From IMG/VR virus record IMGVR_UViG_3300019135_000007: a DNA stretch of 48,086 bases, one strand, 5' to 3'. Position numbers and translations under genes: made by a program. Numbering within the stretch: the stretch's first letter is position 1; each line of letters starts with the position of its first letter. This stretch comes from a virus. Positions 232 through 15,300 of this stretch are shown in pieces. The notes beneath the pieces are model-generated. The model was not told the DNA's origin and ran no database searches. It saw only the letters and a list, made by a program, of their open reading frames with translations.

Positions 232-486
232 CTATTCTTCAGTTTCTTCATCATCTTCTATCCAACTCTCAAAGTAAATCATCTTTATATCTTTCTCATT
301 TTGTACTTCATCAGGGAGCCTGTAATACTTTTCAATGCTGACATATTCAGCTTCAGGAACCATCTTTAAAAGGGCTTCAGCCACTAGCTTTGCTATGTCA
401 TAGCTTTCAAACCCATCAGTTTCATTGATGTATTCATCCTCTATGTCCCATAAAACAACCTTCCAAAACTCAACTAGACTGTCCAT
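232..486 (-). CDS. Hypothetical acidic protein (84 aa)
   Basis: ORF track; acidic tail DDEETEE; co-oriented and tightly packed upstream of thyX; no recognisable family. Confidence 0.55.
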   Translation of the reverse strand: MDSLVEFWKVVLWDIEDEYINETDGFESYDIAKLVAEALLKMVPEAEYVSIEKYYRLPDEVQNEKDIKMIYFESWIEDDEETEE

Positions 487-507
487 ATTGACCCCCTTTA
501 CCTCTCA

Positions 508-1215
508 TTAGCTTCTTCCCTCTTTAAGATGGGGCAGAGTGCAGGTTCCTTCTAGTTTGCATTTAGCACCTGCATATTGGGATAGGTTAGGAGCCACCTT
601 CTTTAAGTGGTTATACATTTTGTTAGCTACCATCCTGACCTCCCACTGGGCATAACAGCACATTCTTTCCTTCAGGAAGTGAATAAGGTTTCTTGCATCA
701 ATGGTCATGTAGAGCCTACATTTGGTTCCTGTAGGAATCACATACCTTGCATCTTCCCTAGGGATGCCCATATCTACCAGTTCTGTGTAGGTATCATAAG
801 CCTTCTTTACACTTTCTAAATACTTTTTCTTTGCTTCAGGGTTCTTCTTGATGCTAGGAGGAATCACTGCTTCCATCCTTGCTTTTTGGTATCTATAGGA
901 CTGCTTGGTATATTTTCCTGTCCTATGCCTTAAAATCTGTTCCCCACATGGGAGGGATATATCTTCAATCAGGAAGGAGAAAGAACTGTGTTCTGCTACT
1001 GACCAGTGCCCCTTCCCAATACTTCTGCTAAACAGACCTGCAATATTTTCTTCATCCTCAAACCTTGTGATAATTTCCTCAATAGACTTCTTACTGTAGG
1101 AAAGATTAGTACCTACTGCAATATTCTGTTCCACATGAGAAACAGGATTTTCCCCCATAACCCTCACTACTTGAGGGTTCATCTGTGTGTAAGACATAAG
1201 AGTAACCTTTGCCAT
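508..1215 (-). CDS. thyX: FAD-dependent thymidylate synthase ThyX
   Basis: 235-aa ORF with the ThyX signature LRHRTGKYTKQSYRY (RHR...S.RY) and a typical ThyX length. Confidence 0.88.
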   Translation of the reverse strand: MAKVTLMSYTQMNPQVVRVMGENPVSHVEQNIAVGTNLSYSKKSIEEIITRFEDEENIAGLFSRSIGKGHWSVAEHSSFSFLIEDISLPCGEQILRHRTGKYTKQSYRYQKARMEAVIPPSIKKNPEAKKKYLESVKKAYDTYTELVDMGIPREDARYVIPTGTKCRLYMTIDARNLIHFLKERMCCYAQWEVRMVANKMYNHLKKVAPNLSQYAGAKCKLEGTCTLPHLKEGRS

Positions 1216-1436
1216 AGTGGTTTCTTCCTTTCATTTTCATATTTTTCTAACTGTGCCTGAAGGCTTTTTACCTTCTGTTCCAAGACCTCTCTTTCTATTT
1301 CCAGTTCCTGAATGTGTATTTCTAATTCTTCTTTTTCATGTTGAAGGAAAGAAACATCTTCCCTCATTTCCTCATTCTCAATTTCCAACTCATTAACCCT
1401 TTCATAAAGTGCTTCTTTGGTATTGTGATACCACAT
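1179..1436 (-). CDS. Hypothetical coiled-coil protein (85 aa)
   Basis: Heptad-rich sequence (ELEIENEEM, ELEIHIQELEIEREVLEQ); overlaps the thyX start by 37 nt. Confidence 0.5.
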   Translation of the reverse strand: MWYHNTKEALYERVNELEIENEEMREDVSFLQHEKEELEIHIQELEIEREVLEQKVKSLQAQLEKYENERKKPLWQRLLLCLTHR

Positions 1437-1492
1437 CTTGAAGCCCTCCTGTCCTTGAGTAAACTAGAAGTTTACAAAGAGGATTAAAAAAA

Positions 1493-2830
1493 TTAACCCC
1501 TTCTACTTTCTAGGTTAGCAAATTTGGTCATATTCTTGATGAAGGCTAACTCTACTGTTCCAGTAGCACCCCTTCTTTGTTTAGAGATTATGATTTCTGC
1601 AATCCCCTTCTTTGGAGAATCAGCATCATAATATTCATCCCTGTAAGTAAAGATGATAACATCTGCATCCTGCTCTATTGCCCCACTGTCCCTTAAGTCA
1701 GACATGATAGGTCTTTTATCTTCCCTCTGTTCCACACTCCTGTTGAGTTGGGCTAATAAGAGGATAGGTACATCCAGTTCCCTTGCAATCTGTTTAAGTG
1801 CCTTGGTCTTTTCAGCAATAGCATCTGCCTTGGAACCTGTCTTGGAATTAGGAGAATCACTGATTAAGCCAAGGTAATCTATGACAACAAGGTCAATAGG
1901 CTTTTCAGAATGAGATTTCCTTAACTTGCTCTTAATATCAGCTATAGTTGTGTTAGGGTTATCATCAATCTGCAGTTCCCATTCCTTGATTTCCCCTAGC
2001 ACTTTCTTAACCTTCTTCCATTCATCTTCAGTCAAGTTCCCTAGCTTTAGCTTTTCAGAAGGTATATTGGCTTCAGCACAAACCATTCTCTCTAATAGCT
2101 GTTCTTTACTCATTTCAAGAGAAAAAATATCCACCTTCTTTTGGTTTCTGCAGTTATTTTGGGAGATATTTAAAGCCAAAGCAGTTTTACCCATAGATGG
2201 TCTACCTGCAATAATGATAAGGTCTGATTTCTGAAGTCCACCAGTTATTCTATCTAGGGCACTATAGCCTGTGGAAAGACCCACTAGGTTGCTCCCCTTC
2301 CTGCTTTGCAGGTTATTATAAAAATCATAAATAAATTCCTTGGTTTTAGTCATTCCCTGACTGGATACAGATGAACTTAAAACCTGAACCAAGATACTCT
2401 CTGCCTTGTCTATGGCTTCCTTGGCATCCACTGCATTGTAGCCCATTTCCTGTAGCCTTTTCCCTGCTTCTATCATGGTTCTTAATTGGGCTTTCTCCTT
2501 CACAATGCCCATATAATATTCACTGTTGGCAGTGGTAGGTACACTCTCTGCTAGTTGGGCTAGGAAACCAACTCCCCCAACCCCTTCTAGCTTCTTTTGG
2601 GCATCCAAGTATTCAGTGACAGTGACAATATCTACTGGCTTACCCTTGCTATGAACTTCCTTCATGGCATCAAAGACAATGCTATGTGAATCTATATAAA
2701 AATCCTTACTGTTCAGGGTAAAGACCCCTAATATTAGGCTTTCTTTATCAATCAGCATGGAGCCAAGGGTAGAAACCTCTGCTTCCATACTGTAAGGCAT
2801 CTTTAGGCAGTCCATTTCCATGAACTCCAC
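1493..2830 (-). CDS. dnaB: Replicative DNA helicase, DnaB family
   Basis: 445 aa; DnaB N-terminal domain, Walker A GRPSMGKTALALN, Walker B LVVIDYLGL, and RDSGAIEQDAD. Confidence 0.92.
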   Translation of the reverse strand: MEFMEMDCLKMPYSMEAEVSTLGSMLIDKESLILGVFTLNSKDFYIDSHSIVFDAMKEVHSKGKPVDIVTVTEYLDAQKKLEGVGGVGFLAQLAESVPTTANSEYYMGIVKEKAQLRTMIEAGKRLQEMGYNAVDAKEAIDKAESILVQVLSSSVSSQGMTKTKEFIYDFYNNLQSRKGSNLVGLSTGYSALDRITGGLQKSDLIIIAGRPSMGKTALALNISQNNCRNQKKVDIFSLEMSKEQLLERMVCAEANIPSEKLKLGNLTEDEWKKVKKVLGEIKEWELQIDDNPNTTIADIKSKLRKSHSEKPIDLVVIDYLGLISDSPNSKTGSKADAIAEKTKALKQIARELDVPILLLAQLNRSVEQREDKRPIMSDLRDSGAIEQDADVIIFTYRDEYYDADSPKKGIAEIIISKQRRGATGTVELAFIKNMTKFANLESRRG

Positions 2831-2859
2831 ACCCTTCCATATTGTTTTGTGTTTGTGTT

Positions 2860-3159
2860 CTACAGGTCTTTCAACATATCTTTCATCATACTTTGGAATT
2901 TCTCTCTACCTTCAGATTGTGGGGCAGGTTTTTCCATTGTGATTTTTCTGCATATGCCCCTCAAATACTCTGCAGGTCTTTTGATACATTTGGCTTGGCT
3001 TGGTCTTGATTTAACAGTATTGATGGCTTCCCTTACTGTGTCCTCACCATATGTTTTATATAGTCTACCAATAAAACCAAAAGCAACACTATCCTGCTTG
3101 ACACCTTCTACCTCAAACCACTCTTTAGTGAGTTGAGTTACTGGATTGGGTTTAGACAA
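2860..3159 (-). CDS. Hypothetical protein (99 aa), directly upstream of dnaB
   Basis: ORF track; its position suggests a replication accessory or loader role, but I recognise no motif. Confidence 0.5.
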   Translation of the reverse strand: MSKPNPVTQLTKEWFEVEGVKQDSVAFGFIGRLYKTYGEDTVREAINTVKSRPSQAKCIKRPAEYLRGICRKITMEKPAPQSEGREKFQSMMKDMLKDL

Positions 3160-3343
3160 CTTCCTTCATCCCTTCTATGCACTGAACTAGCATCTGCAGT
3201 AGTTTATCTGTCTCTACAATGATGCTTAATTCATTTCCTGTATCTGAAGTAATAGTAAGCATTGTTAGTCCTTTTACATTTTTGACCTTTAAAGCTCTCT
3301 TACCAAACAGACCTTCTAGGAGTAAATCTTGGTTGTTTTTCAT
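3152..3343 (-). CDS. Hypothetical protein (63 aa)
   Basis: ORF track; overlaps the next gene by 8 nt, suggesting translational coupling. Confidence 0.45.
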   Translation of the reverse strand: MKNNQDLLLEGLFGKRALKVKNVKGLTMLTITSDTGNELSIIVETDKLLQMLVQCIEGMKEVV

Positions 3344-3390
3344 GCTATCTAACCTATCCTTTCTCTGATGTGTTAAAGATAGCCCTTCAT

Positions 3391-4056
3391 TTAGAAGGGC
3401 AAATCATCATCCTGAATCTCAACTCCAACTAATCTCTCTACTTCATCAGACATTAGGAATTTAATGATTTCAGATGCTTGTACTCTGTTGACTTCAGATA
3501 AACCAATATTTATCCCTAGATGGTCTAATACCTGTTCAACTGAAAGCCCTTTGGCTTTAGCATCTTTCTCAATTTTCCCAATCTGTGCTTTTGTAGCTTT
3601 AGGAGCAGAACTTGCTTTTGGCTCTGAATTTTGTTCCCCTTGCTTATGTGAGTTCTTGGCTTCCTGATTGACTTCATCCAAGTCCCCTAATTCCTCAAAG
3701 ACTGTTCCAAAGCCTGTAAGGAACCTTAATGCCCTACCAATGGCTCTTGTTTCTGCCATCCTGATAATATGGGGCACAATCATTTTATTTACATTGTTTG
3801 GTGAAGCATCACCATAGCCACTGAATGTTTTGCCATCTTTGGTTCTGACTACTGCATGTATAATGGCTTCATGACCATTTTCTTTACTAGGAGCCTGAAC
3901 CATAGTGGTTTCAATCCCTGCTAATTCCCATTCAGCATGAGCAATTTCCAGTAATCCTTCAAAGAGGATATACTCTTTACCTTGTAGCTTTACTACCTTG
4001 TCAGTATTGTACTTTGCCAATACAATCCACCCTTTCATATTGTTTTGTGTGCCCAA
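3391..4056 (-). CDS. Putative Rad52/Sak-like single-strand annealing protein
   Basis: MAETRAIGRALRFLTGFG resembles the Rad52 annealing-domain motif (...TDGLKRALRSFGNALG). The first codons (MGTQNNMKGW) are the conserved CA-rich leader, so the true start is probably a few codons downstream. Confidence 0.5.
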   Translation of the reverse strand: MGTQNNMKGWIVLAKYNTDKVVKLQGKEYILFEGLLEIAHAEWELAGIETTMVQAPSKENGHEAIIHAVVRTKDGKTFSGYGDASPNNVNKMIVPHIIRMAETRAIGRALRFLTGFGTVFEELGDLDEVNQEAKNSHKQGEQNSEPKASSAPKATKAQIGKIEKDAKAKGLSVEQVLDHLGINIGLSEVNRVQASEIIKFLMSDEVERLVGVEIQDDDLPF

Positions 4057-4079
4057 GGTTTATTTAACCTTGTGATTTA

Positions 4080-4108
4080 ATCTTACCACCACTCTTTCAC
4101 TTTGTCAA
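4080..4108 (-). promoter_or_regulatory. Sigma-A type promoter for the annealase/dnaB/thyX leftward operon
   Basis: -35 TTGACA (4103-4108), 17-nt spacer, -10 TAAGAT (4080-4085), read on the minus strand. Confidence 0.7.
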
Positions 4109-4195
4109 CATCCAGTTTACAAACACACAAAACTTTTTGTGGGTAGATATAAATAATAATTATTTTCAGAATTTTAATCTCTCTAGATGATTTTA

Positions 4196-4215
4196 TTTAA
4201 TCTGAACAGATTAAA
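4196..4215. promoter_or_regulatory. Perfect 9-2-9 palindrome TTTAATCTG-AA-CAGATTAAA; candidate operator in the divergent switch region
   Basis: Read directly. A half-site-like TTTTAATCTC recurs about 25 bp to the left (about 4171-4182). Confidence 0.5.
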
Positions 4216-4298
4216 CAATATGAAATTGCTTCCATGTGACTAGGTTAAGAAAACTAAATATGACCAAAATAGATAGTAGGAAGGGGGAAGTGTTTTTT

Positions 4299-4670
4299 AT
4301 GGCAGGTGCTTTAATAAGAAAGGCTAGAAAAAAGTTAAGATATACCCTAGATGATGTGGCTAAATATGTTGGGGTTTCAGCCAATTATATCAGTGAACTG
4401 GAAAGGGGAATTAAAAATAACCCCACTGATGAAGTGATTGAGAAGATTGCTGAATTTTTACATATAGATGCAACTGAACTATATGCTCTCTTTGGAAAGG
4501 TGCCACCAAGCATAATGGAGGAATTTAGTTTTAATCCCTCTATAGCAAAGGGGATAGATGAAATTAACAAGCTAGGTCTTTCAGAAGAAGAAAAGAGAGA
4601 ACTATATGACAGAATAGGGTATTGGACTAGAAAGATTATGGAAGAATATAAACAAAGGAAGAAAATGTAA
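4299..4670 (+). CDS. XRE-family HTH regulator (CI-like repressor candidate)
   Basis: ORF 4236..4670. The ATG at 4299 (MAGALIRKARKKL) follows GGAAGGGGGAAG. HTH is LDDVAKYVGVSANYISELERG. Confidence 0.8.
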   Translation: MAGALIRKARKKLRYTLDDVAKYVGVSANYISELERGIKNNPTDEVIEKIAEFLHIDATELYALFGKVPPSIMEEFSFNPSIAKGIDEINKLGLSEEEKRELYDRIGYWTRKIMEEYKQRKKM

Positions 4671-4696
4671 ATTAGTGGCAGGAAGGAGGGTGAAGT

Positions 4697-5080
4697 ATGA
4701 ATGAATATTATGAGTTCATAAATCAGATTAAAAACCTTTTTATCTTTACTTCAGGTTATTTAACTGCCACTATCATACAGACAATTATTGTCATGCACTG
4801 TAGTGTTAAGTATATAAAAAGGGATGATAAAATGCCCCACAATGTCTATCTCAACATGAGGTGTGGGGATTTAAGGTGGGTTGTGATGAACCCTAAAACT
4901 TGGAGGGATATGCTTGAAGGGTTATTTTTATTGATTGTTTATAGGGCAGGGGAAGGATATGTAAAGCCACATGATAAAGTCAGGGTAAAAATAATATTAA
5001 CAACTTTATTAGTCATTACACTCATTTTAATAATTTCAGGTCTTTGGTACTCCTTTAATATCATTCCACCTACAGAATAA
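4697..5080 (+). CDS. Small membrane protein (127 aa, 2 predicted TM segments) co-transcribed with the repressor
   Basis: Strong SD GGAAGGAGGGTG before the ATG; hydrophobic stretches IFTSGYLTATIIQTIIV and ILTTLLVITLILIISGLW. Confidence 0.65.
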   Translation: MNEYYEFINQIKNLFIFTSGYLTATIIQTIIVMHCSVKYIKRDDKMPHNVYLNMRCGDLRWVVMNPKTWRDMLEGLFLLIVYRAGEGYVKPHDKVRVKIILTTLLVITLILIISGLWYSFNIIPPTE

Positions 5081-5082
5081 AT

Positions 5083-5104
5083 AAAGGGGCATATTGCCCC
5101 CTTT
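5083..5104. terminator. Bidirectional hairpin terminator between convergent genes
   Basis: AAAGGGGCA-TAT-TGCCCCCTTT, flanked by A and T runs, lies between the 4697..5080(+) and 5124..5591(-) stops. Confidence 0.7.
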
Positions 5105-5123
5105 GTGTATGTATTAGGCAGAA

Positions 5124-5579
5124 TTATTCTTGTTCTGCCTTATCCTGCTCTTTCTCTGTTTCTTCATCTATTTCTCCTAGGATTTCCATATAGAGTTCAT
5201 TAACTTTATTCATAAACCTGTCTCTCTTTTCTTCAGTCAATCTGCTTAAAGCTGATAGTAAAAGTTGAAGTTCTTCAGCTTGGTCTAGTAACTTTCTTGC
5301 CTTTAAAGGTGCCCTTCCAAGTATTTTAAACATTTCATCTTCATCCTGATTAAATAATTGAGCCATTTGTTGGACTATAGGGTCTGTAGGAGCCTTTATT
5401 CCCCTAATGATTTCAGAAAGATAATTAGCAGACACATTCAATTTTTCACCTAAAGCCCTTAAATTATAGCCTGCTTTAGTTCTTAAATTATCTAAATGCT
5501 CACCAAAGGCAATCATATGTTTAGCCTGTCTTAATTTCTCCTCTGCAGTTAATTGATTTGCCTTTTCCCCTAGTCTCAT
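5124..5579 (-). CDS. XRE-family HTH regulator (second switch protein)
   Basis: ORF 5124..5591; the likely start MRLGEKANQ has an AAAGGA SD upstream. HTH is LRALGEKLNVSANYLSEIIRG. Confidence 0.8.
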   Translation of the reverse strand: MRLGEKANQLTAEEKLRQAKHMIAFGEHLDNLRTKAGYNLRALGEKLNVSANYLSEIIRGIKAPTDPIVQQMAQLFNQDEDEMFKILGRAPLKARKLLDQAEELQLLLSALSRLTEEKRDRFMNKVNELYMEILGEIDEETEKEQDKAEQE

Positions 5580-5621
5580 GACACACAACATCCTTTCATA
5601 AACTTATTGATTACACTTATT

Positions 5622-5650
5622 ATAATAAACAAGATGTGTCCCTGTGTCAA
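5622..5650 (-). promoter_or_regulatory. Sigma-A type promoter for the 5124..5579 regulator
   Basis: -35 TTGACA (5645-5650), 17 nt, -10 TATTAT (5622-5627). Confidence 0.7.
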
Positions 5651-5739
5651 CACTTTGTTTACAGAATCTTTTTCAAATTCCAATAAAGTGTAGTGGGGCA
5701 GAATATTGGATGTGGTGGTAGTAAAAACCAAAGTTATGT

Positions 5740-5827
5740 TAAGAACCCCTGCAAAGCAGGGGAAGTCTTTCAGACTTCTACTAATTCTTTTTTAAAGGCA
5801 AAAACATATTACATGTGCCTTCGGCAC
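5740..5827 (-). ncRNA. Candidate small structured RNA or structured 5' leader with no ORF
   Basis: Lies downstream of the consensus promoter at 5834..5862. Three hairpins: ATGTGCC-GAA-GGCACAT (5813-5829), GAAGTC-TGAAA-GACTTC (5762-5778) and CCCCTGC-TTT-GCAGGGG (5746-5762), then TTCTT. Confidence 0.35.
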
Positions 5828-5833
5828 ATCCCT

Positions 5834-5862
5834 ATTGTATCATGGATTTTAGAGTTTGTCAA
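5834..5862 (-). promoter_or_regulatory. Consensus sigma-A promoter with no gene directly behind it
   Basis: -35 TTGACA (5857-5862), 17 nt, -10 TACAAT (5834-5839). Confidence 0.7.
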
Positions 5863-5948
5863 CAAAAAGTTTACTGAATGACAAAGATTGTTACACTTCC
5901 CCTGCCCCACTGAACTATCTTTTTAGGGAAAAGGGCATACTACACCCC

Positions 5949-6842
5949 TTACCCCTCTAGGAAGTTATATAAAGGCACTCTTACATTGACTTGGAATACT
6001 GGTTCTTCTTCCTCCTCATAAGAGTAAACCTCTAAAATATGCTCTTTCTCCATAAGGGCATCTACAGTGTTATGGAAGTATCCTTCAAGGTTAAAAGGCT
6101 TGTCTACTCTTAAGGCAGATTTAAACTTTCTCATAGTGGCTTTAAAGGCTTCTAGGGCACACTCTAAAACATCAGGGCATAGATAATGCTTCTTCTTAAA
6201 CTTCTTCACCATAGCCCATAATTTATGTATCAGTTTAGCATCATCAAAGTAGCAGGAAACTAGGTCAACAAACTCTTTTGGGATGTCCTTGCTGACCATT
6301 TCCTTACCTAAAATGATTTCTTTAGCCTTTTTAACCACTTTACTGTATATATTATTATTATTTTTATTAATATTAGCTTTTTTATCATTTGTTTCAGGTT
6401 GAGAATTTTGGGCTTCAGCCTTACTCTCACAAGGGCTTTGAGGTTCTGCAGGGTACTTCAAAATTCTCTCTGCTGGTACTTCATTTGTGTATCTTTTAAA
6501 GACATATACACTATGACCCTGCCCACCCTTTTTATGAATAGTGTGGATAACCTCAATGATACCTAGCTTCTTGGCTTTTCTTAACATTCTCTCAAAAGTG
6601 CTTCTTGAGATACCATAGCCATTAAATTTCTCATGGATAGCCTTTAACATAGTTGCAATTTTGGCAAATGCAATCCCAAAGTATTTAGCACTATATTGTG
6701 TTAGCTTTTTAAAGGCAATAAGTTCACCTTTAGTAAATTTATCTTTATGGTCTGCCAAGAACCTTCTATTGCTTGCATTAAACTCCTGTAAATTTTCAAA
6801 CTGGCTCAATTTTCTATACTCTTTAGCTTGCCCAGAAAGCAT
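5949..6842 (-). CDS. Putative plasmid-type replication initiator / winged-helix DNA-binding protein (297 aa)
   Basis: The N-terminal half (GISRSTFERMLRKAKKLGIIEV) looks like an HTH or winged helix. It sits next to the par genes behind an elaborate control region. The family call is inference. Confidence 0.45.
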   Translation of the reverse strand: MLSGQAKEYRKLSQFENLQEFNASNRRFLADHKDKFTKGELIAFKKLTQYSAKYFGIAFAKIATMLKAIHEKFNGYGISRSTFERMLRKAKKLGIIEVIHTIHKKGGQGHSVYVFKRYTNEVPAERILKYPAEPQSPCESKAEAQNSQPETNDKKANINKNNNNIYSKVVKKAKEIILGKEMVSKDIPKEFVDLVSCYFDDAKLIHKLWAMVKKFKKKHYLCPDVLECALEAFKATMRKFKSALRVDKPFNLEGYFHNTVDALMEKEHILEVYSYEEEEEPVFQVNVRVPLYNFLEG

Positions 6843-6848
6843 AAAAAT

Positions 6849-6879
6849 AACTCCTTTCTATATTCTACTGAAAGGAGTT
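6849..6879 (-). promoter_or_regulatory. 10-bp stem hairpin that sequesters the rep Shine-Dalgarno
   Basis: AACTCCTTTC (6849-6858) pairs with GAAAGGAGTT (6870-6879). In the mRNA sense the 3' arm is the GAAAGGAG SD, 7 nt before the rep ATG. Confidence 0.5.
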
Positions 6880-7039
6880 CCCTACCACACAACTTAAAAA
6901 AAATGTAAACACACTTGAATAAGCCTATAGAATTGGTTATACTATAGGTAACTTAATATGTTTTGTGGGTCAAGGAACCCCTAAAAATTCCTTGCATGCA
7001 AAATAACTCCTTTTTAGGGTGTCCTGTGTGGTAGGGAAC
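6877..7039. repeat. 15-bp perfect inverted repeat pair, GTTCCCTACCACACA (6877-6891) and TGTGTGGTAGGGAAC (7025-7039), bracketing the rep upstream region
   Basis: Read directly. Each arm sits next to a copy of AAAATAACTCCTTT (6844-6857 and 7001-7014). Confidence 0.8.
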
Positions 7040-7046
7040 CCTAATC

Positions 7047-7080
7047 CAAAACCTAGTGATTGCCAGTCACTAGGTTTTTT
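7047..7080. terminator. Hairpin terminator (CCTAGTGA-N7-TCACTAGG) with U-tracts on both strands
   Basis: Stem arms at 7052-7059 and 7067-7074, flanked by CCAAAA and TTTTTT. Confidence 0.6.
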
Positions 7081-7235
7081 CCTTTAGCCATAATTCTACA
7101 ATATTTTTGGAATGTTTGTCCATATCTTGCATATATCTAATATCTTGTGCTACAATATTGGTATCCCTTTTATATTGTTTTGTTTTTGTGTTCTTTATCA
7201 GGGGGAGTAATCCCCCAAAAATTTTGCCTATAATT

Positions 7236-7264
7236 ATAATAACATCACTGTAGTTTTGTGTCAA
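7236..7264 (-). promoter_or_regulatory. Sigma-A type promoter of a ~170-nt unit between par and rep
   Basis: -35 TTGACA (7259-7264), 17 nt, -10 TATTAT (7236-7241). It is followed by the GGGGGA-TTAC-TCCCCC hairpin and the CA-rich leader. Confidence 0.7.
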
Positions 7265-7273
7265 TTTCATATT

Positions 7274-7303
7274 AAAAAAGAAGGGGATTATTTCTGCCCC
7301 TTC
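7274..7303 (-). terminator. Rho-independent terminator of the par operon
   Basis: Minus sense GAAGGGG-CAGAAATAAT-CCCCTTC followed by TTTTTT. Confidence 0.75.
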
Positions 7304-7370
7304 CTGTAGTTCTCTATTCTTCTTTTTAGTTCTTCTTCATATCTCTCAATGATTGTTTTAATTTTATACC

Positions 7371-7805
7371 TTATTTCTTTTCCCATTCATTCAAAAGTGC
7401 TTCTATAGCTTCATTGATAAACATGGTTTTAAACCCTCTTTTACCTTTTGTAAGTTTATCCAATCTTCTAAGCAGGTCTTTTCTGAACAGGAAAGTGGTT
7501 CTTTGGTGAGTATCTTCTACAGTCTGTCTTTTTGTTTTTTCTTCATACTTATCAAGTATTGTATTCCTTACATGTTGTAATGTAACAGTTTCAGTATTAC
7601 TTGTTTGTGCTACATCTTCCTGATTAGTATTACTTGTTTGTGCTACATCTTCCTGATTAGTATTACTTGTTTGTGCTACATGTTTCTGTTCAGTATTACT
7701 TAAACCTGTTACATCATCATTTTTAGTGTTATGTCCTACTGATACATTTTCCTTGTGAGAAAACTTATTAAATACATTGGAAAGGTTTTTATTTGCTCTT
7801 GCCAT
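7371..7805 (-). CDS. Ribbon-helix-helix centromere-binding protein candidate (ParG/ParR-like partner of ParA)
   Basis: 144 aa, 4 nt downstream of parA. The C-terminus RTTFLFRKDLLRRLDKL...KTMFINEAIEALL fits an RHH fold. The N-terminus carries tandem QTSNTNQEDVA repeats. Confidence 0.6.
   Translation of the reverse strand: MARANKNLSNVFNKFSHKENVSVGHNTKNDDVTGLSNTEQKHVAQTSNTNQEDVAQTSNTNQEDVAQTSNTETVTLQHVRNTILDKYEEKTKRQTVEDTHQRTTFLFRKDLLRRLDKLTKGKRGFKTMFINEAIEALLNEWEKK
7593..7715. repeat. 33-bp tandem repeat inside the RHH gene (two exact copies plus about 1.5 diverged copies)
   Basis: agtattacttgtttgtgctacatcttcctgatt is identical at 7593-7625 and 7626-7658, followed by diverging copies. Confidence 0.9.
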
Positions 7806-7809
7806 AGGA

Positions 7810-8604
7810 TTACACCCTTTCTTTAGTTTCTAATACTTCTTTGATTAACTCATAATAAGCATAAACTATAGGATTTTTAGCATCTGTCCATACTGCAGGT
7901 TTACCTTCATAAGCAGTAGAGTTAGCAAATCTGATTGACTTTGGTATAATGGTTTCATACATGGTAATATCTTGTTCTAAACAATACTTTCTAGCTTGTT
8001 GAAGCATTTCACTATGCAGATGGGTTCTACTATCTACCATCATGCCCACAACTCCTGCCACTTCTAGTTGTGGGTTTAAATTTTTTCTGAAGTCCTCAAT
8101 AGCTTCTAAAACCCTGACTAAACCCTTCACTCCAAACATTTCAGGTACAAATGGAATAATGACCTTATCAGCCACTGCTAAAGCATTTCCAGTAGGTAGT
8201 CCCATGCTTGGGGGAGTATCAATCAGTATGTAGTCATAGTGGTGTCTGATACTCTCAATGCCCTGTTTTAAAAGTTGGAATGGTAGTGGGTATTTATCCT
8301 GATGGGGCAGAACATCAAACTCCAAGAAACTCATATCTTCATTAGCAGGTAATAAGTCTAGGTTTTCATCTACTGAAATGATTACTTCATCTGTCCTTGC
8401 CCCACCCATAAGAACATCATAGATGGTGTTCATAATCTCACTGGGGTTCAATCCAAAGGCAATAGAACTGTTTCCCTGACCATCAGTATCAATGATAAGC
8501 ACCTTCTTGTTATATTCCCTAGAAAGAACTCCTGCAAGGTTGGAAACAAGGCTTGTCTTACCTACACCACCTTTATTCATAGCAATAGCATATGTAACAG
8601 TCAT
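7810..8604 (-). CDS. parA: ParA/Soj-type partition ATPase (small type Ib)
   Basis: 264 aa; deviant Walker A NKGGVGKTS and Walker B-like region ILIDTPPS. Confidence 0.9.
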   Translation of the reverse strand: MTVTYAIAMNKGGVGKTSLVSNLAGVLSREYNKKVLIIDTDGQGNSSIAFGLNPSEIMNTIYDVLMGGARTDEVIISVDENLDLLPANEDMSFLEFDVLPHQDKYPLPFQLLKQGIESIRHHYDYILIDTPPSMGLPTGNALAVADKVIIPFVPEMFGVKGLVRVLEAIEDFRKNLNPQLEVAGVVGMMVDSRTHLHSEMLQQARKYCLEQDITMYETIIPKSIRFANSTAYEGKPAVWTDAKNPIVYAYYELIKEVLETKERV

Positions 8605-8640
8605 ATGAACACCCTTTCATATTTAGTAATATTTATTAAT

Positions 8641-8670
8641 ATTATATATTATGTAATAATAAAATGTAAA
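8641..8670 (-). promoter_or_regulatory. Probable par operon promoter in a TAATAT-rich region (possible autoregulatory operator)
   Basis: -35 TTTACA (8665-8670), 18 nt, -10 TATAAT (8641-8646). Confidence 0.5.
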
Positions 8671-8686
8671 CATTTTAATATTAAGT

Positions 8687-8710
8687 AAAAAAGAACTCTT
8701 TTCAGAGTTC
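8687..8710 (-). terminator. Rho-independent terminator overlapping the stop of 8702..9316
   Basis: Minus sense GAACTCT-GAAA-AGAGTTC followed by TTTTTT. Confidence 0.75.
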
Positions 8711-9316
8711 TTCAGGCTCAATTTCCATAGTATCTAGCTTGTCTGAACCACAATAATGACACTTCCCTGCCTTCATATCTACACTTTCTCCACATTCCAA
8801 ACAGTATCTATCTAATGTTGCCTTGGGCTTCCCCATCAATTCATCCAGTGTAGTTCCTAGGATTCCAGCATATCCTTCAAACTTATCTTCTGCCCCATTT
8901 CCTCTTTCCATTTGGTAGACATATGGAGTAGAAACCTCAAGCCATTCTGCCACTTCTTGTGCAGTCTTGTTCTTTTTCTTTCTTAACTCTTTTAAAGCCT
9001 TGCCCCACTTTTTCTTGTTATCTTTCAGTTCCTGTTGAGCATCCAGTCTATCTGCAGATGTTTCAATCTTAATATCCTGTACTTCAGGGATGTATTGGAA
9101 CAAATTCTCTACTGTTGTTTCATAGATATGTGCAATAGCAAAAGCAGTTTCTAACTGGATGTTGGTATATCCCTCTACCCCTCTTTCAATTCTGCTGTAA
9201 TGATTGTCAGAGATACCTAACCCTAACTGTCTTAATCTTAATGCCACATCCTTTTGTGTCCATCTTCTTTCATTTCTCAATCTTGTTAATTCCCATGTAT
9301 TAGGTCTGATAGCCAT
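8702..9316 (-). CDS. Double XRE-HTH protein with a C-terminal zinc ribbon
   Basis: Two HTH units (WTQKDVALRLRQLGLGISDNHYSRIERG and KTAQEVAEWLEVSTPYVYQMERG) plus CLECG...CHYCG. Its start abuts the recombinase stop (TAAATG). Confidence 0.75.
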   Translation of the reverse strand: MAIRPNTWELTRLRNERRWTQKDVALRLRQLGLGISDNHYSRIERGVEGYTNIQLETAFAIAHIYETTVENLFQYIPEVQDIKIETSADRLDAQQELKDNKKKWGKALKELRKKKNKTAQEVAEWLEVSTPYVYQMERGNGAEDKFEGYAGILGTTLDELMGKPKATLDRYCLECGESVDMKAGKCHYCGSDKLDTMEIEPEEL

Positions 9317-10117
9317 TTAAGACACCTTCCTTTTTAAATTGTTATTTGCTCTGCCCCAAACTTGTTTGGATACTATTGGTTCAAAGTTAAGATTGATAAG
9401 TTCACCATTGTAGATATATCTGCCACAGTAAAGTTCATTCTTCAGGATTTTATTTACACTGTTATGTGTCCATTCCTCACCTTTACTGTTTCTGTATCCT
9501 TCCTGATTGAGCCTGTCAGCAACCTTTCTGATGGATAGACCATCAAAGGCTACCCAGTGGAATATTTTCTTTACCACCTTGGCTTCTTCAGGGATGATTT
9601 CTAGTTGGTTTTCTTCAGTCACCTTGTATCCATAAGGTTTTCTGCTAATGTAGTGACCTTCCCTTAATTTAGCCATCTTTGCAGGCTGTACCCTATTCTT
9701 GATGTTGTCCCTTTCTTGTTCTGCAAATATCCCTAGGAGTTGAAAGGCTAGTTTTCCCACTGGTGTATCTGTATCCAAATCCAAATCACCAATATAGATG
9801 GATGCTCCTAGCTGATTGATTTCATGCTTGGTATTAAGGGCAATCCTTAAATCCCTTGAAAATCTGTCTGCCTTGTAAACATAAACAGTGTCTACTGGGT
9901 TTTCCTTTATAAACTCCATCATTCTCTTGAGTTCAGTTCTATCTTCCTTTGCCCCACTCTCACCTTTTTCAATGAAGTGTTCAATAATTTCATAACCTTT
10001 GTAGACTGCCCATCTATGAGCCTGATTTACTTGGTCATCTAAAGAAATTCCCTTCACTTGGTCTTGAGTGGATACCCTTGCATAGACAACTGCTCTTTTT
10101 AACTCTTGTTCTAGCAT
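9317..10117 (-). CDS. Serine recombinase (resolvase catalytic domain plus partial 'recombinase' domain, 266 aa)
   Basis: VVYARVSTQDQ nucleophile motif and YVYKADRFSRD. The KPYGYKV...IRKVADRLNQEGY segment is typical of large serine recombinases, but there is no zinc-ribbon or coiled-coil domain. Confidence 0.9.
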   Translation of the reverse strand: MLEQELKRAVVYARVSTQDQVKGISLDDQVNQAHRWAVYKGYEIIEHFIEKGESGAKEDRTELKRMMEFIKENPVDTVYVYKADRFSRDLRIALNTKHEINQLGASIYIGDLDLDTDTPVGKLAFQLLGIFAEQERDNIKNRVQPAKMAKLREGHYISRKPYGYKVTEENQLEIIPEEAKVVKKIFHWVAFDGLSIRKVADRLNQEGYRNSKGEEWTHNSVNKILKNELYCGRYIYNGELINLNFEPIVSKQVWGRANNNLKRKVS

Positions 10118-10149
10118 TGTTATCCCCCTCTATATTGTTTTGCTACTTT

Positions 10150-10178
10150 TATAATAATATTATTATAGTCTAATGTCA
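10150..10178 (-). promoter_or_regulatory. Sigma-A type promoter for the recombinase operon
   Basis: -35 TTGACA (10173-10178), 17 nt, -10 TATTAT (10150-10155), then the AGCAAAACAATATAGAGGGGGA leader. Confidence 0.7.
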
Positions 10179-10185
10179 ACAAAAA

Positions 10186-10226
10186 AATTAAAAAAGAAAG
10201 GGCTAGGGATTATTGTTCCCTGCCCT
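10186..10226 (-). terminator. Imperfect hairpin plus T-run after the lysis cassette
   Basis: Minus sense AGGGCAGGGA-ACAATAA-TCCCTAGCCCT followed by TTCTTTTTT. Confidence 0.5.
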
Positions 10227-10572
10227 ATTGTTTTGCCTTTTCTTCTCTGATAATTTTTTCTACCTGCATTTTAAAATCTACTGCAGTGTAAGGGAGATTG
10301 TGCTTCTTCATTTGAGCATCAAATACCTCCATAGCCCTTTGTAGCTTTAAAGCACCATGCTCCTTAAGTTTGTCCCCAAACTCCCTTTCCACATATTCAT
10401 AGACATCCCTGCTGACCTTTTCTAGCATCATATATTGCTCATTAGTGGTCTTTGCCTTAATGTATGCCTTAACTTTAGCTACTGCCATGCCCATTAAAGA
10501 CATAACAGTGAGGGTAATGATTTCAACAAGGTTATCTATAATGACCTTAATGATTTCTTCCATTTCTGTCAC
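10225..10572 (-). CDS. Holin-like protein (LL-H-type architecture: one N-terminal TM segment plus a charged tail)
   Basis: 115 aa; hydrophobic segment LVEIITLTVMSLMGMAVA; sits next to the endolysin. Confidence 0.5.
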   Translation of the reverse strand: MTEMEEIIKVIIDNLVEIITLTVMSLMGMAVAKVKAYIKAKTTNEQYMMLEKVSRDVYEYVEREFGDKLKEHGALKLQRAMEVFDAQMKKHNLPYTAVDFKMQVEKIIREEKAKQ

Positions 10573-10596
10573 CTCTACAATGAATAAACTGTAAGT

Positions 10597-11436
10597 TTAC
10601 TTTACCCTGATTTTCTGCCCTATCTGTAGTGCAGTGGCTTTGATGTTAGGGTTTAGTGCTTCTAGCTTTGCTACAGTAGTTTTGAATCTTTCAGCTATAG
10701 ACCAAAGGGTATCCCCTTTTTGAATCACATAGTATTTCTGTGGCTTCAGGTAAACTTTATCACCTATCTGTAGAGCCTTTGCCTTCAAATGAGGGTTTAA
10801 TTCCTCAAGTTGGGTTACAGAAATATTGTATTTTTGTGAAATGCCCCAAAGTGTATCTCCTTTTTGGATAATATGATAGTCCTTGGATGGGGCAGGTTTA
10901 GGCTCCACCTTTTTAGGTGGATTTAGCTTTTCCTGAACCGTTTTCTTAAATCTTTCAAATTCTTTAGGGTTCTTCACCCACCCTGCAGGGCAATTTTTCC
11001 CTGTAATGTCAAAATGCCTGTAAAGATTTTTAGCACTCAAGCCAAATAGCTTGCATAGCTGAACTACAATATCCACTGTATTTTGGAATGTTTTTTCAGT
11101 GATATTCATGTTAGCATCTACACACATTTCTACCCCAATGGTTGTGAAGTTGGCATTATCACCAAGTTCCTTAGGGTAGCACCTGCCCCCATCATTTGCA
11201 TGATAGGCTACTTCATCAAAAGGAATAAGCTGAATGGCTTCCTTTTCATCCACTGCAATATGTGCAGAAGCATACCTTTCCTGTCTAATACAAGTCCCAT
11301 CAAAGTAGTCTCTAATATTTTTAGCAGAAGCCCTAGGAGATGCAGTATAATGAAGAACAATTCCCTTTACTCCCTTTAGCTTCCTAGCAGGTCTAGTGTA
11401 TTTATTTACCCTGATAAAGTCCTTTTTAATTATCAT
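10597..11436 (-). CDS. Endolysin: N-acetylmuramoyl-L-alanine amidase (Amidase_2/PGRP) with two C-terminal LysM domains
   Basis: IVLHYTASP and RHFDITGKNCPAGW motifs. Two LysM repeats (YHIIQKGDTLWGISQKYNISV..., YYVIQKGDTLWSIAERFKTTV...). Confidence 0.9.
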   Translation of the reverse strand: MIIKKDFIRVNKYTRPARKLKGVKGIVLHYTASPRASAKNIRDYFDGTCIRQERYASAHIAVDEKEAIQLIPFDEVAYHANDGGRCYPKELGDNANFTTIGVEMCVDANMNITEKTFQNTVDIVVQLCKLFGLSAKNLYRHFDITGKNCPAGWVKNPKEFERFKKTVQEKLNPPKKVEPKPAPSKDYHIIQKGDTLWGISQKYNISVTQLEELNPHLKAKALQIGDKVYLKPQKYYVIQKGDTLWSIAERFKTTVAKLEALNPNIKATALQIGQKIRVK

Positions 11437-11731
11437 CTTTTATCCCTCCCTGACCTTCAGGAAAGACATTTTTCTTAATATTTTTGACCTCATGCCACAA
11501 TCTTGTCTGCCCTTCCTGTAGTTCTTTAAGTTGTTCTTTAATGCCAACAAGGGTAGTGGCTACTTCCCTCAAGGTGTTGGCTTGGTTTTCAATCATTTTG
11601 GACTGATTATTAACCAATGTGTGCATCATTCTTAATATGAAAATGGCAAATACAACTGTTAAGGCAGTACCTAGACCATAGTTAAGCAATTCTGTAAGTG
11701 GCAAACCTGCCAAAACATCTAACATTTTCAT
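11426..11731 (-). CDS. XhlA-like / holin-associated membrane protein
   Basis: ORF 11426..11818 starts on TTG inside a terminator and promoter. The realistic start is MKMLDV (ATG at 11731 or 11725) after GGGGGGTG. It has one TM segment (LGTALTVVFAIFILRMM) plus a coiled coil. Confidence 0.5.
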   Translation of the reverse strand: MKMLDVLAGLPLTELLNYGLGTALTVVFAIFILRMMHTLVNNQSKMIENQANTLREVATTLVGIKEQLKELQEGQTRLWHEVKNIKKNVFPEGQGGIKDDN

Positions 11732-11741
11732 CACCCCCCTA

Positions 11742-11753
11742 TTAAATAGTTCC
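11742..11753 (-). promoter_or_regulatory. Late-type upstream motif (GGAACTATTTAA) ahead of the lysis cassette
   Basis: Minus sense CAGGAACTATTTAATAGGGGGGTGATGAAAATG. Confidence 0.4.
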
Positions 11754-11772
11754 TGTTTGTATGAGTTAGGGC

Positions 11773-11797
11773 AAAAAAAAGAAGGGCTATTGCCCTT
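11773..11797 (-). terminator. Rho-independent terminator between the tail and lysis modules
   Basis: Minus sense AAGGGC-AATA-GCCCTT followed by CTTTTTTTT. Confidence 0.75.
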
Positions 11798-11937
11798 TGC
11801 TGTTGAGTTTTTGCTCAAGTTTTACAACCCTTTCCTCTAGCCTTTCAATGTATTCCATCAAGTTTGTAAGGTTCTTAAACTTTTTCTTCAAGCTGTGCTT
11901 CTTAAGTTCTTCTTCCCTTTTTCCTCTAGGGATTGGT

Positions 11938-12381
11938 TTATTGTTGACTTGTATTTTCTGCACCCTTCTTCACCACCCTATAAACCTTAATTTCTGCCTG
12001 CTCTAGACTATTTGAGCCTTTAGGGATAAGAATGGATGCTAACATGTATTTTAATTTATCTACTCCCTCATAACAGGCAACTACCTCTGAACCTACCTCT
12101 GTCCTGTCTACATGAACTGCCTGTCCACTATCAGAAGGTAGGTCTAGTAAGTAAACATCATAAATAACATCAAAATCAGGGTCAGGCACTATATCAAAAG
12201 AGAAGGCAGGGTATTCATCAGTTTCTATGTGTTTTTCCATCTTATCTGTATCATAATTATATACCCCATACTCCATATAAAACTTTCCTTCTGTAAAGGT
12301 TATTTCTGATAAAGAAGGGGTGGAGATTTCCAACCCCTCTATCCAGTAATTATCTGTTTCTGTTGTAATTGTATTTATCAT
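11938..12381 (-). CDS. Hypothetical tail-associated protein (147 aa)
   Basis: ORF track; immediately downstream of the 1270-aa tail protein; acidic. Confidence 0.55.
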   Translation of the reverse strand: MINTITTETDNYWIEGLEISTPSLSEITFTEGKFYMEYGVYNYDTDKMEKHIETDEYPAFSFDIVPDPDFDVIYDVYLLDLPSDSGQAVHVDRTEVGSEVVACYEGVDKLKYMLASILIPKGSNSLEQAEIKVYRVVKKGAENTSQQ

Positions 12382-12396
12382 CTTCTACTCCCTCCA

Positions 12397-15300
12397 TTAA
12401 ATCCTCTTGCCACAAGCCACAACCTGAACCTGAATGGAATGGGTAAATGCCCCACCATCAACATCATGCAGATACACCCTTGCCCCTGTTGATGAAAGAT
12501 TGTAGATAGAAGCAGTATATCTGTAGGAATTAACATTCACTGCAGTAGCTAGACACCATATTGGAGTTGCACTAAAAGCAACTGGGAAGTTAAAATCTGC
12601 AAAGGAGTATTTAGCATTACTGAAATTTACTGTTACTATGATGTTTTGTATCATCATCAAATCATCATGATTAGAACCATCCCTGACAGAAAGCATGTTG
12701 TAGCCATTTGGATACTTATATCTTGGCATTTGCAGGTATCTAGTAGTTGCATCAAAAATCCACTTATCCCCTATACTATTGTTGATAGTGACATTCCCAC
12801 CATCAGGGTTTAAATGAAGGGTTCCTACCCCTCCACTACTGAAGGCTGAAAGTTCATTGGTATCCATTTTTAAACTGTTGCCTGTTGTGGCATTACCAAT
12901 AACAAACCCTACCCCCTGTGATGTCCCTGAAACATCATCTGTTGTAGGGATAAGGAGGTTGATATGGCTGGCTTCAATGGTTCCTGCTTTAACTTTTCCC
13001 CAAGTATTGATGGAAGGGTACTTATCCAACCCCCTTCTCATAATCCAAATATTATCTTCTGAATCATATACATGGGCTTGCTCACTCTCTACCACTTGGA
13101 CACCATCAATTTCCACCCAGTTTGAGTTGGTTGTTTTAATTTCAATTTCTGCCCAGTATTCCATATAGTTGGAAAGAGCATTTGGAGCCATAACCCCTTC
13201 ATATACAAACCTTCTAACTGCTCCATCCTGCCATAGTGGGGCAGAAAAGTTTTGAGTGTAGGATTGAACTAAAAACCCTTCTCCATAGAAGGAAACCTTT
13301 AATTGTGGGATACCTACATTGGATTGAGAAGTATTGTAGTTAGAAAACTTGGCATGGAAAGAGATAGAATACTTTCTGTTAGGTCTTACTTGAAAGGCTT
13401 GTTTAACATAGTTGGCACTATTTACTGCAACTGCCTGATTTCCAAATGGGGCAGTGGAAGCCACATCAGTTTGAAGATTACTGTTTAATCTTGGATTTCC
13501 TACTGTTGCCCATTGATACCATAGGTCTGATTGTGCAGGAATAGCAAAATACCCATTAGAATCTACTGAACCTGTCCCCTCAATCATTTCAAAGGAGTGG
13601 TCAACAATCAGATTAGTTTTAGGACTTAACCTATACTTATGACCTGCTGAATTGCTATCCTCAAGAGTAAAGCTACCATCCTTAACATTCACACCATTTT
13701 TATTAATGGTTGTAACTGCCCCATTAGTTCCCACTGTTATACCATTAGAGTTAATGGTAATTTCAGATGTGTTAGACTGGACAGATACTAGGTCAGCATT
13801 AAGTGTCCCTGCCTTAATAACTTGGGCATTTAACCCTGCAGTAGCAATATGAGAAGTCTGAATGGCACCTGCTACAATCTTATCTGCAGTAACAGAGTTG
13901 GAAGCTAATTCATTGGCAGTCAGGGTTCCTGAAGCTATCTTATTGGCAGTAATAGTCCTTGAAGCTATTTGGTTAGCAGTGACAGTACCAGTGTAAATAT
14001 CCCCACCATCAATATAAGTGGTATTAGAATATTTCCACCCATCCACTAAACTCTTTGTGTCACTGTATTGAGTGTCTGCATAGCTTTTTGCATTATTTTC
14101 TGCAGTATCAATCATCCCTTTTGTTTCAGAAGGCATTTCCACTACTTTAGGGTTAGCTACCCATACATTTTTAGCTACTCCATTATTATAGAAGTTAAGC
14201 CATCTAACCCTAATGTATTTGGTATTAGGGAGCATCCTAGCAGAGTGGGTAATATTCTCACCCAATCCCTTGAATTTAGATAGGTCTGTGCCTGCAGGCA
14301 TTATATAGGCAGTCCTCTTAATCCAAGTGTTGATAGGGTCATTATCACCACTCCAAAAGTAAGGGTTAGTGTTTTTTGTAGCTAATGTAGTGTCACTGAT
14401 ATTGACCATATCAATACCAATATTTTCTTGTGAAGCATCATAGCCATACAGACCAAAATAATCTGTTCCTCCCAATCCATCAGCCATAAACCAAAATGTA
14501 ACCTCATAGGCTTTGGATGGGTCTACTTCAATAAAATCAGATATGACCATAGTATTTCCACTGGTATATACCTGCTGAACAGGTACTGTTGCACCAAAAA
14601 AGTCCTTATTCACCACTGATAATGGTGAGCCTGTCCATTTGTCTAATGTTCCTGTCTTTGTAGTATTGTTGATAAGGTTGCCATATTTGCTGTCAGCATA
14701 GGTTTTAGCATTATTTTCTGCAGTACTAATCTTGCTATCAGTAGTAGCAGTATCATATGCCCCTATATCAATAGCTTGTGTAGGAGTGGCATATACCCAA
14801 GTGGAACCATCCCATCTTCTCAATCTGTTAGGGTTTACAGAAGTGTCAAGCCAAAAATCATCCACTTGAGGGTTAGATGGGGCAGTAGATTGTCTTGGTA
14901 TTCCTTTTTCTCTGCTTTCTGCAATAGCTTGTGCATTGTTTGCAGTAGTTTCTGCCTGTTGTGCAGTGGCTTCAGCATTTTGAGCAGTATTCAGGGCATT
15001 GGAAGCATCATTTTGTGCCTGTGTTGCTTTATTCTCTGCATTAGTGGCAGTGGTTTCAGCATTAGCTGCTTTATTCTCAATTGCCCCAATTGTGGAGCCT
15101 GTTGTAGTATTAATCAATTCTCCACTAGCTACTTGAATTTGGATAGGGTTGTATTCATCATCTACCACAACCATTGAACCTGCCTGAACTGCAGAACTAT
15201 GATGGACATTATTCAAGGTATTCTGACCTTTTTCTAGCCTCTTAAAGAAGTCAAATAAATCTTTCTTCCTGTTAGCTAATGTGACCTTAATTTGCTCTGT

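Follow-up and report, generated by a model that had tools for sequence, protein, structure and literature searches.

Genes and features of the maintenance block

IMG/VR virus record IMGVR_UViG_3300019135_000007 is a DNA of 48,086 nt, here called the window, and we analysed it with a focus on the plasmid-style maintenance block at positions 5949-10117. This block carries the genes of a Rep-like winged-helix protein, a small ParA ATPase with a partner that is likely of the ribbon-helix-helix (RHH) type, and a short serine recombinase together with a protein containing two XRE-type helix-turn-helix (HTH) domains (Table 1). A first-pass annotation, made from the sequence alone, had described a Rep-like protein, a ParA with an RHH partner and a resolvase-type serine recombinase, each unit with its own promoter and terminator, and had proposed that the phage persists as an extrachromosomal, actively partitioned replicon. 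All of the genes it named were found in place on the minus strand, and the double-XRE gene at 8702-9316 proved to be a fifth one that had been missed. Promoters matching 11 of 12 consensus positions at 10179, 8670 and 7264, and terminators at ~10190-10226, 8690-8713 and 7273-7302, agreed with the description of separately controlled units. The evidence presented below suggests that the element is probably a phage-plasmid.

Table 1. Coordinates of the maintenance block, its control elements and neighbouring features in the window
Feature	Position	Strand	Evidence or remark
Terminal overlap	1-127 = 47960-48086		100% identity
CI-like XRE repressor (4236-4670) and 127-aa protein (4697-5080)	4236-5080	+	Sole plus-strand genes in the genome
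XRE regulator, 155 aa, own promoter 5622-5650	5124-5591	-	33-46% identity in relatives
Orphan consensus promoter (5834-5862) and short hairpin-rich stretch without open reading frame	5740-5862	-	Between rep and XRE gene
Rep-like protein, 297 aa	5949-6842	-	phrog_1835, 2.6e-36
Iteron-like sites, perfect 15-nt inverted repeat GTTCCCTACCACACA	6877-6891 and 7025-7039		Third, degenerate copy at 6959-6980
Rep-leader hairpin, 12-14 pairs, CUGG-containing loop	7048-7078		Fold prediction
Rep-leader promoter	7236-7264	-	11/12 positions, TG extension; leader ~390 nt
Terminator after par operon	7273-7302	-	AAGGGG...CCCCTT stem then T-run, direct reading
ParA partner, 144 aa	7371-7805	-	Disordered N-terminal half with 11-aa repeats, C-terminal RHH-like fold (model)
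Five 33-nt tandem repeats inside partner gene	7560-7757		Repeat search
ParA, 264 aa, small Walker-type ATPase, type Ib style	7810-8604	-	PF13614, 1.1e-46; phrog_164, 2.5e-59
parA promoter, TTTACA-18-TATAAT	8641-8670	-	Promoter scan, 11/12 positions; inside TTACAT-rich element
Terminator after recombinase/XRE operon	8690-8713	-	Computed
Double XRE-HTH protein, 204 aa, C-terminal CxxC...CxxC ribbon	8702-9316	-	Profile matches, sequence reading
Short serine recombinase, 266 aa	9317-10117	-	PF00239, 2.1e-37; PF07508, 2.4e-23
Recombinase-operon promoter, TTGACA-17-TATTAT	10151-10179	-	11/12 positions
Terminator ahead of recombinase promoter	~10190-10226	-	Direct sequence reading

Genome closure and gene content

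The two ends of the window share 127 identical nucleotides, so the genome closes into a circle whose unit is 47,959 bp long. It comes from biocrust (desert soil crust) metagenomes, namely four runs of one study, and a single 47,930-nt Logan contig spanned the whole circle in three of the four. The sole assembly break, with contig ends at 7622-7652, falls in the 33-nt tandem repeat of the ParA-partner gene, and no joints, loose ends or host junction were seen in positions 1-20000 among the contigs of the biocrust runs. In these metagenome assemblies the element was a closed circle without host flanks. The k-mer depth was 72-272 across positions 1-20000, in runs of only 350-620 Mb. By rough estimate ~1-3% of the biocrust reads stem from the phage, a share that would fit a bloom.

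Taken as a whole, the window represents a complete circular siphophage genome, probably that of a temperate phage with a Bacillaceae host. The minus strand carries nearly all genes, and the structural, lysis and replication gene set is full, as initially reported: packaging, head and tail genes (TerS, TerL, portal, capsid/head proteins, tail tube, tape measure and tail fibre), a holin and a LysM-amidase, and genes for DNA metabolism (DnaB, a two-piece DnaE-type polymerase, ribonucleotide reductase, thymidylate synthase and a PD-(D/E)XK nuclease). A sigma factor, ArdA and three tRNAs complete the inventory. In line with the earlier claim, neither a tyrosine integrase nor a full-length large serine recombinase (LSR) was found among the open reading frames (ORFs) scanned; the scan did not extend to nine ORFs of >=90 aa in the structural module, the tail fibre and the tape measure among them.

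When the block and 24 kb of the window were searched by megablast against phages and plasmids, no match was obtained, and phiT1 was the sole match of the structural region (71%). Relatives were absent from two genome-contig scans (one with Rep alone, one with the XRE-partner alignment), two viral-contig scans and one metagenome-contig scan; the recombinase alignment, used in a second metagenome-contig scan, matched only generic serine recombinases (at most 39% identity).

Relatives and exchange of the Rep/Par cassette

Searches with TerL and with the recombinase retrieved the same few records: Rossellomorea phage phiT1 (PV767480), a GenBank phage whose host is Rossellomorea aquimaris; Halobacillus litoralis SaN21-8 plasmid unnamed1 (NZ_CP129017), a circular 'plasmid' of 53,464 bp; and plasmid p_ACL01CRY2 (LC810155), a closed circle of 52,234 bp. 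Of these three collinear relatives, two are deposited as closed circular plasmids and phiT1 as a phage with its host given, so database records show the lineage in both forms, phage and plasmid. All three relatives share the gene order tail, lysis, short recombinase, XRE partner, ParM with a small protein, HTH Rep, XRE and DnaB. No PF00589 integrase was found in any of them, and each has one short PF00239 gene.

Comparison of all window ORFs with the three full relatives by tblastn revealed a collinear backbone with 40-70% amino-acid identity. The Rep-like protein, ParA and the ParA partner formed one contiguous block among the few window genes left unmatched, and at this position the relatives carry ParM/ParR and a different winged-helix HTH Rep, with clear parC-like repeat arrays upstream of parM. 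Because these three genes are unmatched as one block, the maintenance cassette is the exchangeable part of the genome. A conserved phage backbone with a variable plasmid cassette is the pattern described for phage-plasmids (Pfeifer et al. 2021, PMC7969092), and the Rep/Par swap fits it.

The state of one relative can be read from its published assembly. The ACL01 co-colony, in which a Rhodanobacter grew with Priestia megaterium, had been restreaked repeatedly; its hybrid assembly closed plasmid p_ACL01CRY2 and, separately, the chromosomes of both bacteria, and the authors left the origin of the plasmid unexplained (PMC11256862). The coverage of p_ACL01CRY2 relative to that of P. megaterium was 54x versus 34x with Illumina and 1,500x versus 366x with Nanopore (PMC11256862), which corresponds to ~1.6-4 copies per P. 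megaterium chromosome. A low-copy plasmid prophage would look like this.

Partition genes

The ParA protein has a Walker A motif (KGGVGKT) at residues 11-17 and no N-terminal HTH; its AAA_31 match begins at residue 6. Together with the PF13614 and phrog_164 matches, this motif confirmed the original ParA assignment. The best NCBIfam model was PrgP, at 3e-26 and below the curated equivalog cut-off. ParA shares 31% identity with its counterpart on Peribacillus plasmid pC, where parA is followed by a partner gene and by 'replication initiator protein A' (RepA).

The RHH assignment of the partner can be kept as likely. Pfam gave no direct match for this protein. Its AlphaFold2 (AF2) model shows a disordered N-terminal half, an extended segment at residues 100-108 and then two helices with a predicted local distance difference test score (pLDDT) above 90. 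Foldseek returned only weak rows (NikR, MatP and MazE6). An exhaustive search collected 301 family representatives, conserved over residues 75-143, and among 60 family members RHH_3 was matched in four and RHH_1 in two. A homologue with 67% identity overlaps the end of parA on plasmid pC. The protein is likely of the RHH type because the modelled fold, the RHH matches in 6/60 family members and the position of the pC homologue after parA point the same way. The copy number of the 33-nt repeats in its gene varies, as a 99%-identical partner variant of 133 aa has one 11-aa unit fewer.

Judged by sequence, a centromere could lie in the TTACAT-rich parA promoter or in the 33-nt tandem repeats within the partner gene. 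The TTACAT-rich element, of ~30 nt and with a consensus near TTTACATATTACTATTACATAAT, occurs at 8647-8678, 16230-16291, 24675-24711, 36798-36833 and 40216-40246, that is, at the parA promoter and at four intergenic spots before structural and early operons. Possible functions are those of a shared operator, a second class of promoter or dispersed centromere-like sites. The heptamer ATTACAT is mildly enriched in the window (20 copies against 11.8 expected).

The Rep-like gene and its leader

The AF2 model of the Rep-like protein (pLDDT 80) comprises a winged-helix N-terminal domain, a disordered linker at residues 126-175 and a helical C-terminal domain. Its structural matches reached Z values of 7-8.8 to the winged helices of CodY, ORC/Cdc6, RTP and RctB, which bears out the winged helix first assigned from the sequence; a profile search of PDB sequences gave no match. 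Homologues are common in Bacillaceae, and on three complete Bacillaceae plasmids (11, 16 and 24 kb) such a homologue is the sole replication candidate found. The protein ends in PLYNFLE (window 5949-5975) and the phiT1 'replication protein' (phiT1 11165-12262) in PFYNWLE. A tail of the P[LF]YN[FW]LE type also ends RepA of plasmid pC (2790-3743), a RepA_N-annotated protein that has nothing but this tail in common with the Rep-like protein of the window. Within the Rep-like family, 41/120 members close with an x[WF]L-type tail, compared with 3/150 in an unrelated family. The tail may be a short docking motif, perhaps for a host replication factor. From this context we infer that the Rep-like protein may act as a plasmid replication initiator.

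The leader of the gene holds a duplicated ribosome-binding site and a predicted hairpin. Hairpins with GACTGG at the 5' side of the loop lie at 7048-7078 in the window, at ~10955-10995 in phiT1 and at ~12150-12190 in the Halobacillus plasmid. Their stems differ yet pair (CCTAGTGA/TCACTAGG, CCTCAT/ATGAGG and CCTAGC/GCTAGG in the three leaders), and the structure is kept although the three Rep proteins are barely related. The hairpins were folded singly, and RNAalifold on the three misaligned their 3' arms. This hairpin may be a conserved attenuator or an antisense-RNA target. The repeat GTTCCCTACCACACA has just two perfect copies in the whole window, both in this leader, which makes the 15-nt repeats a candidate Rep-binding site or origin. 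Weak plus-strand promoter matches (9/12) at 6906-6943 face the two-way hairpin at 7048-7078, and a promoter there could produce an antisense RNA of ~130 nt across the iteron-like repeats. A 66-aa ORF at 7070-7270 was treated as non-coding, since it matched no family and overlaps with the promoter of the rep leader.

The short serine recombinase and its double-XRE partner

The recombinase consists of a catalytic domain and a recombinase domain and stops at residue 266, directly after PF07508. Residues S16, R14, D84, R85 and R88 are invariant in the family alignment. All 11 aligned relatives (266-291 aa) share the same C-terminal end point, which marks the short form as a natural clade rather than a damaged gene. 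No zinc-ribbon/coiled-coil domain was found in the recombinase or in its close homologues. It matched only the N-terminal half of the CcrB and XisF models of NCBIfam, where the CcrA model was matched too, and it matched the phrog_95 integrase at 3e-78. By its domain content it is an LSR relative that ends after the recombinase domain and not a Tn3-type resolvase: its C-terminal part is PF07508 rather than the short HTH of small resolvases and invertases. The first-pass annotation was thus right about a serine recombinase, by PF00239, and wrong about the resolvase type. Identity to the orthologues in the three collinear relatives was 39-42%, and the longest contigs bearing recombinase relatives were phage-sized, at 41-51 kb.

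The stop codon (TAA) of the recombinase gene directly abuts the ATG of the double-XRE gene in the same frame, so that the two are start-coupled. The partner is conserved in the three collinear relatives (38-43% identity), all of which lack its zinc ribbon, a CxxC pair of ~25 aa. The idea of a split LSR with its zinc ribbon encoded in the next gene was rejected, since none of the three orthologous partners has the ribbon. The layout of a terminator followed by a TTGACA promoter ahead of the recombinase is also present in the relatives. A perfect palindrome in the recombinase promoter was considered as a res site and dropped, as it is not conserved in the relatives. A DNA-invertase role was unsupported, with no convincing long inverted repeats around the tail-fibre genes.

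A 275-aa recombinase of the same type is encoded at 4001-5259 on Anoxybacillus flavithermus plasmid NZ_CP021839, an ordinary plasmid of 24.8 kb, where it overlaps a downstream 144-aa gene annotated as 'nucleotide excision repair endonuclease'. A pair of a resolvase and a GIY-YIG protein has been described in phage-plasmid RBClin15 (PMC11526630). A short recombinase with a small partner may be a recurring plasmid theme. More speculatively, and with doubt prevailing, the recombinase lacking the zinc-ribbon/coiled-coil domain and its start-coupled double-XRE protein could form an undescribed two-protein site-specific recombination system, in which the XRE protein would give site choice or directionality and which would serve multimer resolution, or conceivably integration, in phiT1-like Bacillaceae phage-plasmids; this proposal includes the 33-nt repeats in the ParA-partner gene as the centromere.

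Probable lysogeny as a low-copy plasmid

We consider it probable, at roughly 70%, that the element is a temperate phage whose lysogenic state is a low-copy circular plasmid. The closed circle, the plasmid records of the relatives and the Rep/Par swap support the extrachromosomal, partitioned lysogeny proposed in the first-pass annotation; for this very element it is a conclusion drawn indirectly, because the element is known from metagenomes alone and at bloom-like depth. In the mechanism that we propose, the lytic promoters would be repressed first, after which the Rep-like protein would bind the 15-nt leader repeats and start theta replication; the long, structured leader probably limits expression of the protein. 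Segregation of the copies would fall to the small Walker-type ParA with its RHH-like partner. Multimers would be resolved by the short serine recombinase, which would be produced together with its double-XRE DNA-binding partner; Cre/lox has this role in P1 and the beta recombinase in pSM19035. Rep and Par together form the exchangeable cassette.

Several results weigh against this reading. As to replication and partition, Foldseek and VIA-align gave only generic winged-helix matches for the Rep-like protein, and no curated Rep family (e.g. RepA_N, Rep_3) was matched in Pfam to E = 1 or in NCBIfam to E = 0.1. Members of the Rep-like family are also encoded in chromosomes and, on a phage-like B. 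cereus plasmid, next to a full-length serine integrase, and no regular repeat-array centromere was found in the 97 nt upstream of parA. These Rep results bear on a partial alternative, which we regard as rather unlikely, in which the Rep-like protein is a lytic origin-binding protein or a transcription factor instead of a plasmid initiator and plasmid replication, if any, starts from another origin. The generic fold, the annotation of PHROG 1835 as just 'HTH DNA binding protein', the homologues in chromosomes and next to integrases in phage-like elements, and the position of the gene upstream of the phage replication genes would all suit such a role. However, homologues are the only Rep candidates on the three small plasmids, the gene has been exchanged along with the partition genes, its own leader holds the unique 15-nt repeats, and it has the xYN[WF]LE tail in common with an annotated RepA_N-type initiator and the phiT1 'replication protein'.

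The sampling of the element also counts against plasmid lysogeny: it was found in metagenomes only, its depth looks like a lytic bloom and is silent on a prophage state, and the plasmid records of its relatives could reflect carrier states. The bloom-level biocrust depth in itself neither supports nor contradicts lysogeny. We give a low probability to the explanation that the phage is essentially lytic or pseudolysogenic and uses the block for a carrier state or for spore entrapment. Rep and Par would then hold the genome in cells that grow slowly or sporulate and would pass it on to the forespore, but lysogeny under true repression would not occur. In favour of this, the genome encodes DnaE, DnaB, ribonucleotide reductase, thymidylate synthase and a sigma factor of its own, a set commoner in virulent phages, and the depth in biocrust is that of a bloom. 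Virulent SPO1-like Bacillus phages, moreover, carry partition homologues with a suggested role in host sporulation (Pfeifer et al. 2021, PMC7969092). Against a carrier state, the genome encodes three XRE-type regulators, including the CI-like gene in its sole plus-strand pair, the ACL01CRY2 relative survived repeated restreaking at a few copies per chromosome (~1.6-4) and not at burst levels, and a dedicated Rep with its own controlled leader exceeds what entrapment needs.

The remaining points against plasmid lysogeny concern recombination: the serine recombinase could in principle integrate the phage, no res-like site is conserved upstream of the recombinase across the four genomes, and contigs drop rare variants, so that a minority integrated form could escape notice. 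Integration, with the short recombinase and the DNA binding of the double-XRE protein acting as a two-part integrase and Rep/Par bridging the time before integration or after excision, is nevertheless very improbable: the recombinase belongs to the LSR branch (phrog_95, CcrB, XisF and CcrA models), lies directly after the lysis genes, where an integrase usually lies, and has a conserved, start-coupled partner, but its whole clade lacks the zinc-ribbon/coiled-coil domain that in LSR-DNA structures recognises att sites and controls synapsis, the partner is not that missing domain since three orthologues have no ribbon, the same gene pair is carried by relatives that are free circles, closed apart from closed chromosomes, the biocrust contigs show no host junction, the longest contigs of the recombinase family are phage-sized, and the 275-aa short form sits on an ordinary Anoxybacillus plasmid.

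Comparison with known systems

The phage-plasmids P1, N15 and SSU5 (groups of Pfeifer et al. 2021, PMC7969092) resemble the window in combining a complete temperate phage with an initiator (a putative one in the window), a partition system and a site-specific recombinase and in having no integrase. In this class, as in the window lineage, the phage backbone is constant and the plasmid genes vary among relatives. There is, however, no sequence relation between the window and P1, N15 or SSU5, its host is among the Bacillaceae, and its plasmid state is deduced. The Firmicute siphophages IEBH, Bp8p-C and B83 are kept as plasmids by an actin-like ParM and an RHH/HTH adaptor (PMC11526630). The three relatives of the window use the same ParM/ParR type, a likeness by description only, whereas the window has a Walker-type ParA with an RHH-like partner. 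B83 also differs in its Xer-type tyrosine recombinases (PMC11526630), in place of which the window has a short serine enzyme.

The window and phiT1, SaN21-8 and p_ACL01CRY2 agree in their collinear virion, lysis, recombinase/XRE, DnaB and split DnaE genes and in the place of the maintenance block, between the lysis and replication genes. The relatives differ in having ParM/ParR with parC-like repeats, an HTH Rep that is 23% identical, an XRE partner without a ribbon and a size of 52-53 kb.

Type Ib partition systems (ParF/ParG of TP228, delta/omega of pSM19035 and PrgP/PrgO of pCF10) likewise consist of a small HTH-less ParA followed by a small partner with a flexible N-terminal tail; in these systems the partner is a dimeric RHH-type protein, and in the window it is likely of the RHH type. 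In the window, by contrast, the PrgP score is far under the cut-off, no upstream repeat-array centromere was found, and the partner has a long, repeat-containing linker. With Cre/lox of P1, beta/six of pSM19035 and the Tn3-family resolvases the recombinase shares its proposed role on multimers and the location of its gene, which adjoins partition and replication genes. It differs from Cre, beta and the Tn3 resolvases in being of LSR type, in having no HTH_7 and no zinc ribbon, and in its pairing with a double-XRE protein.

Phage-plasmids are common, and Pfeifer et al. 2021 (PMC7969092) count a large proportion of the phages and plasmids of Bacillus among them, so the lifestyle itself is not news. 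The analysis ties a phage record (phiT1), two 'plasmids', one of them unexplained by its authors, and a biocrust bloom phage into one lineage, and it provides a clear case from nature of a complete Rep/Par cassette being swapped, ParA with an RHH partner against ParM/ParR, on a conserved backbone. It also draws attention to the conserved short serine recombinase with its XRE partner and to their putative role. If it is true that the element rides through drought as a plasmid in spore-forming Bacillaceae, this would help explain quick phage blooms after crust wetting.

Promoters, regulators and dispersed repeats

The five best sigma-70 promoter matches in 3300-10700 (11/12 positions) were at 10179, 8670, 7264, 5862 and 5650, all on the minus strand. 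Three of them head one maintenance unit each, and the other two precede the orphan RNA and the 155-aa XRE gene. Rfam gave no match for the orphan stretch at 5740-5862. The XRE genes of the neighbouring switch at 4236-5591 were present as first described, with a corrected arrangement: the two XRE genes converge and do not diverge, as the plus-strand pair at 4236-5080 runs towards the 155-aa gene. The 127-aa protein of this pair has no family match and a hydrophobic sequence, and is possibly a membrane protein. An analogous opposite-strand gene pair is carried by p_ACL01CRY2.

A motif of 23-30 nt, near AACAAAACAATATGAAAGGG in minus-strand sense, occurs in eight copies, at 2831, 4029, 7164, 32340, 33673, 34205, 35316 and 41646. 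These copies sit at or just ahead of gene starts, and at least one spans the likely ATG.

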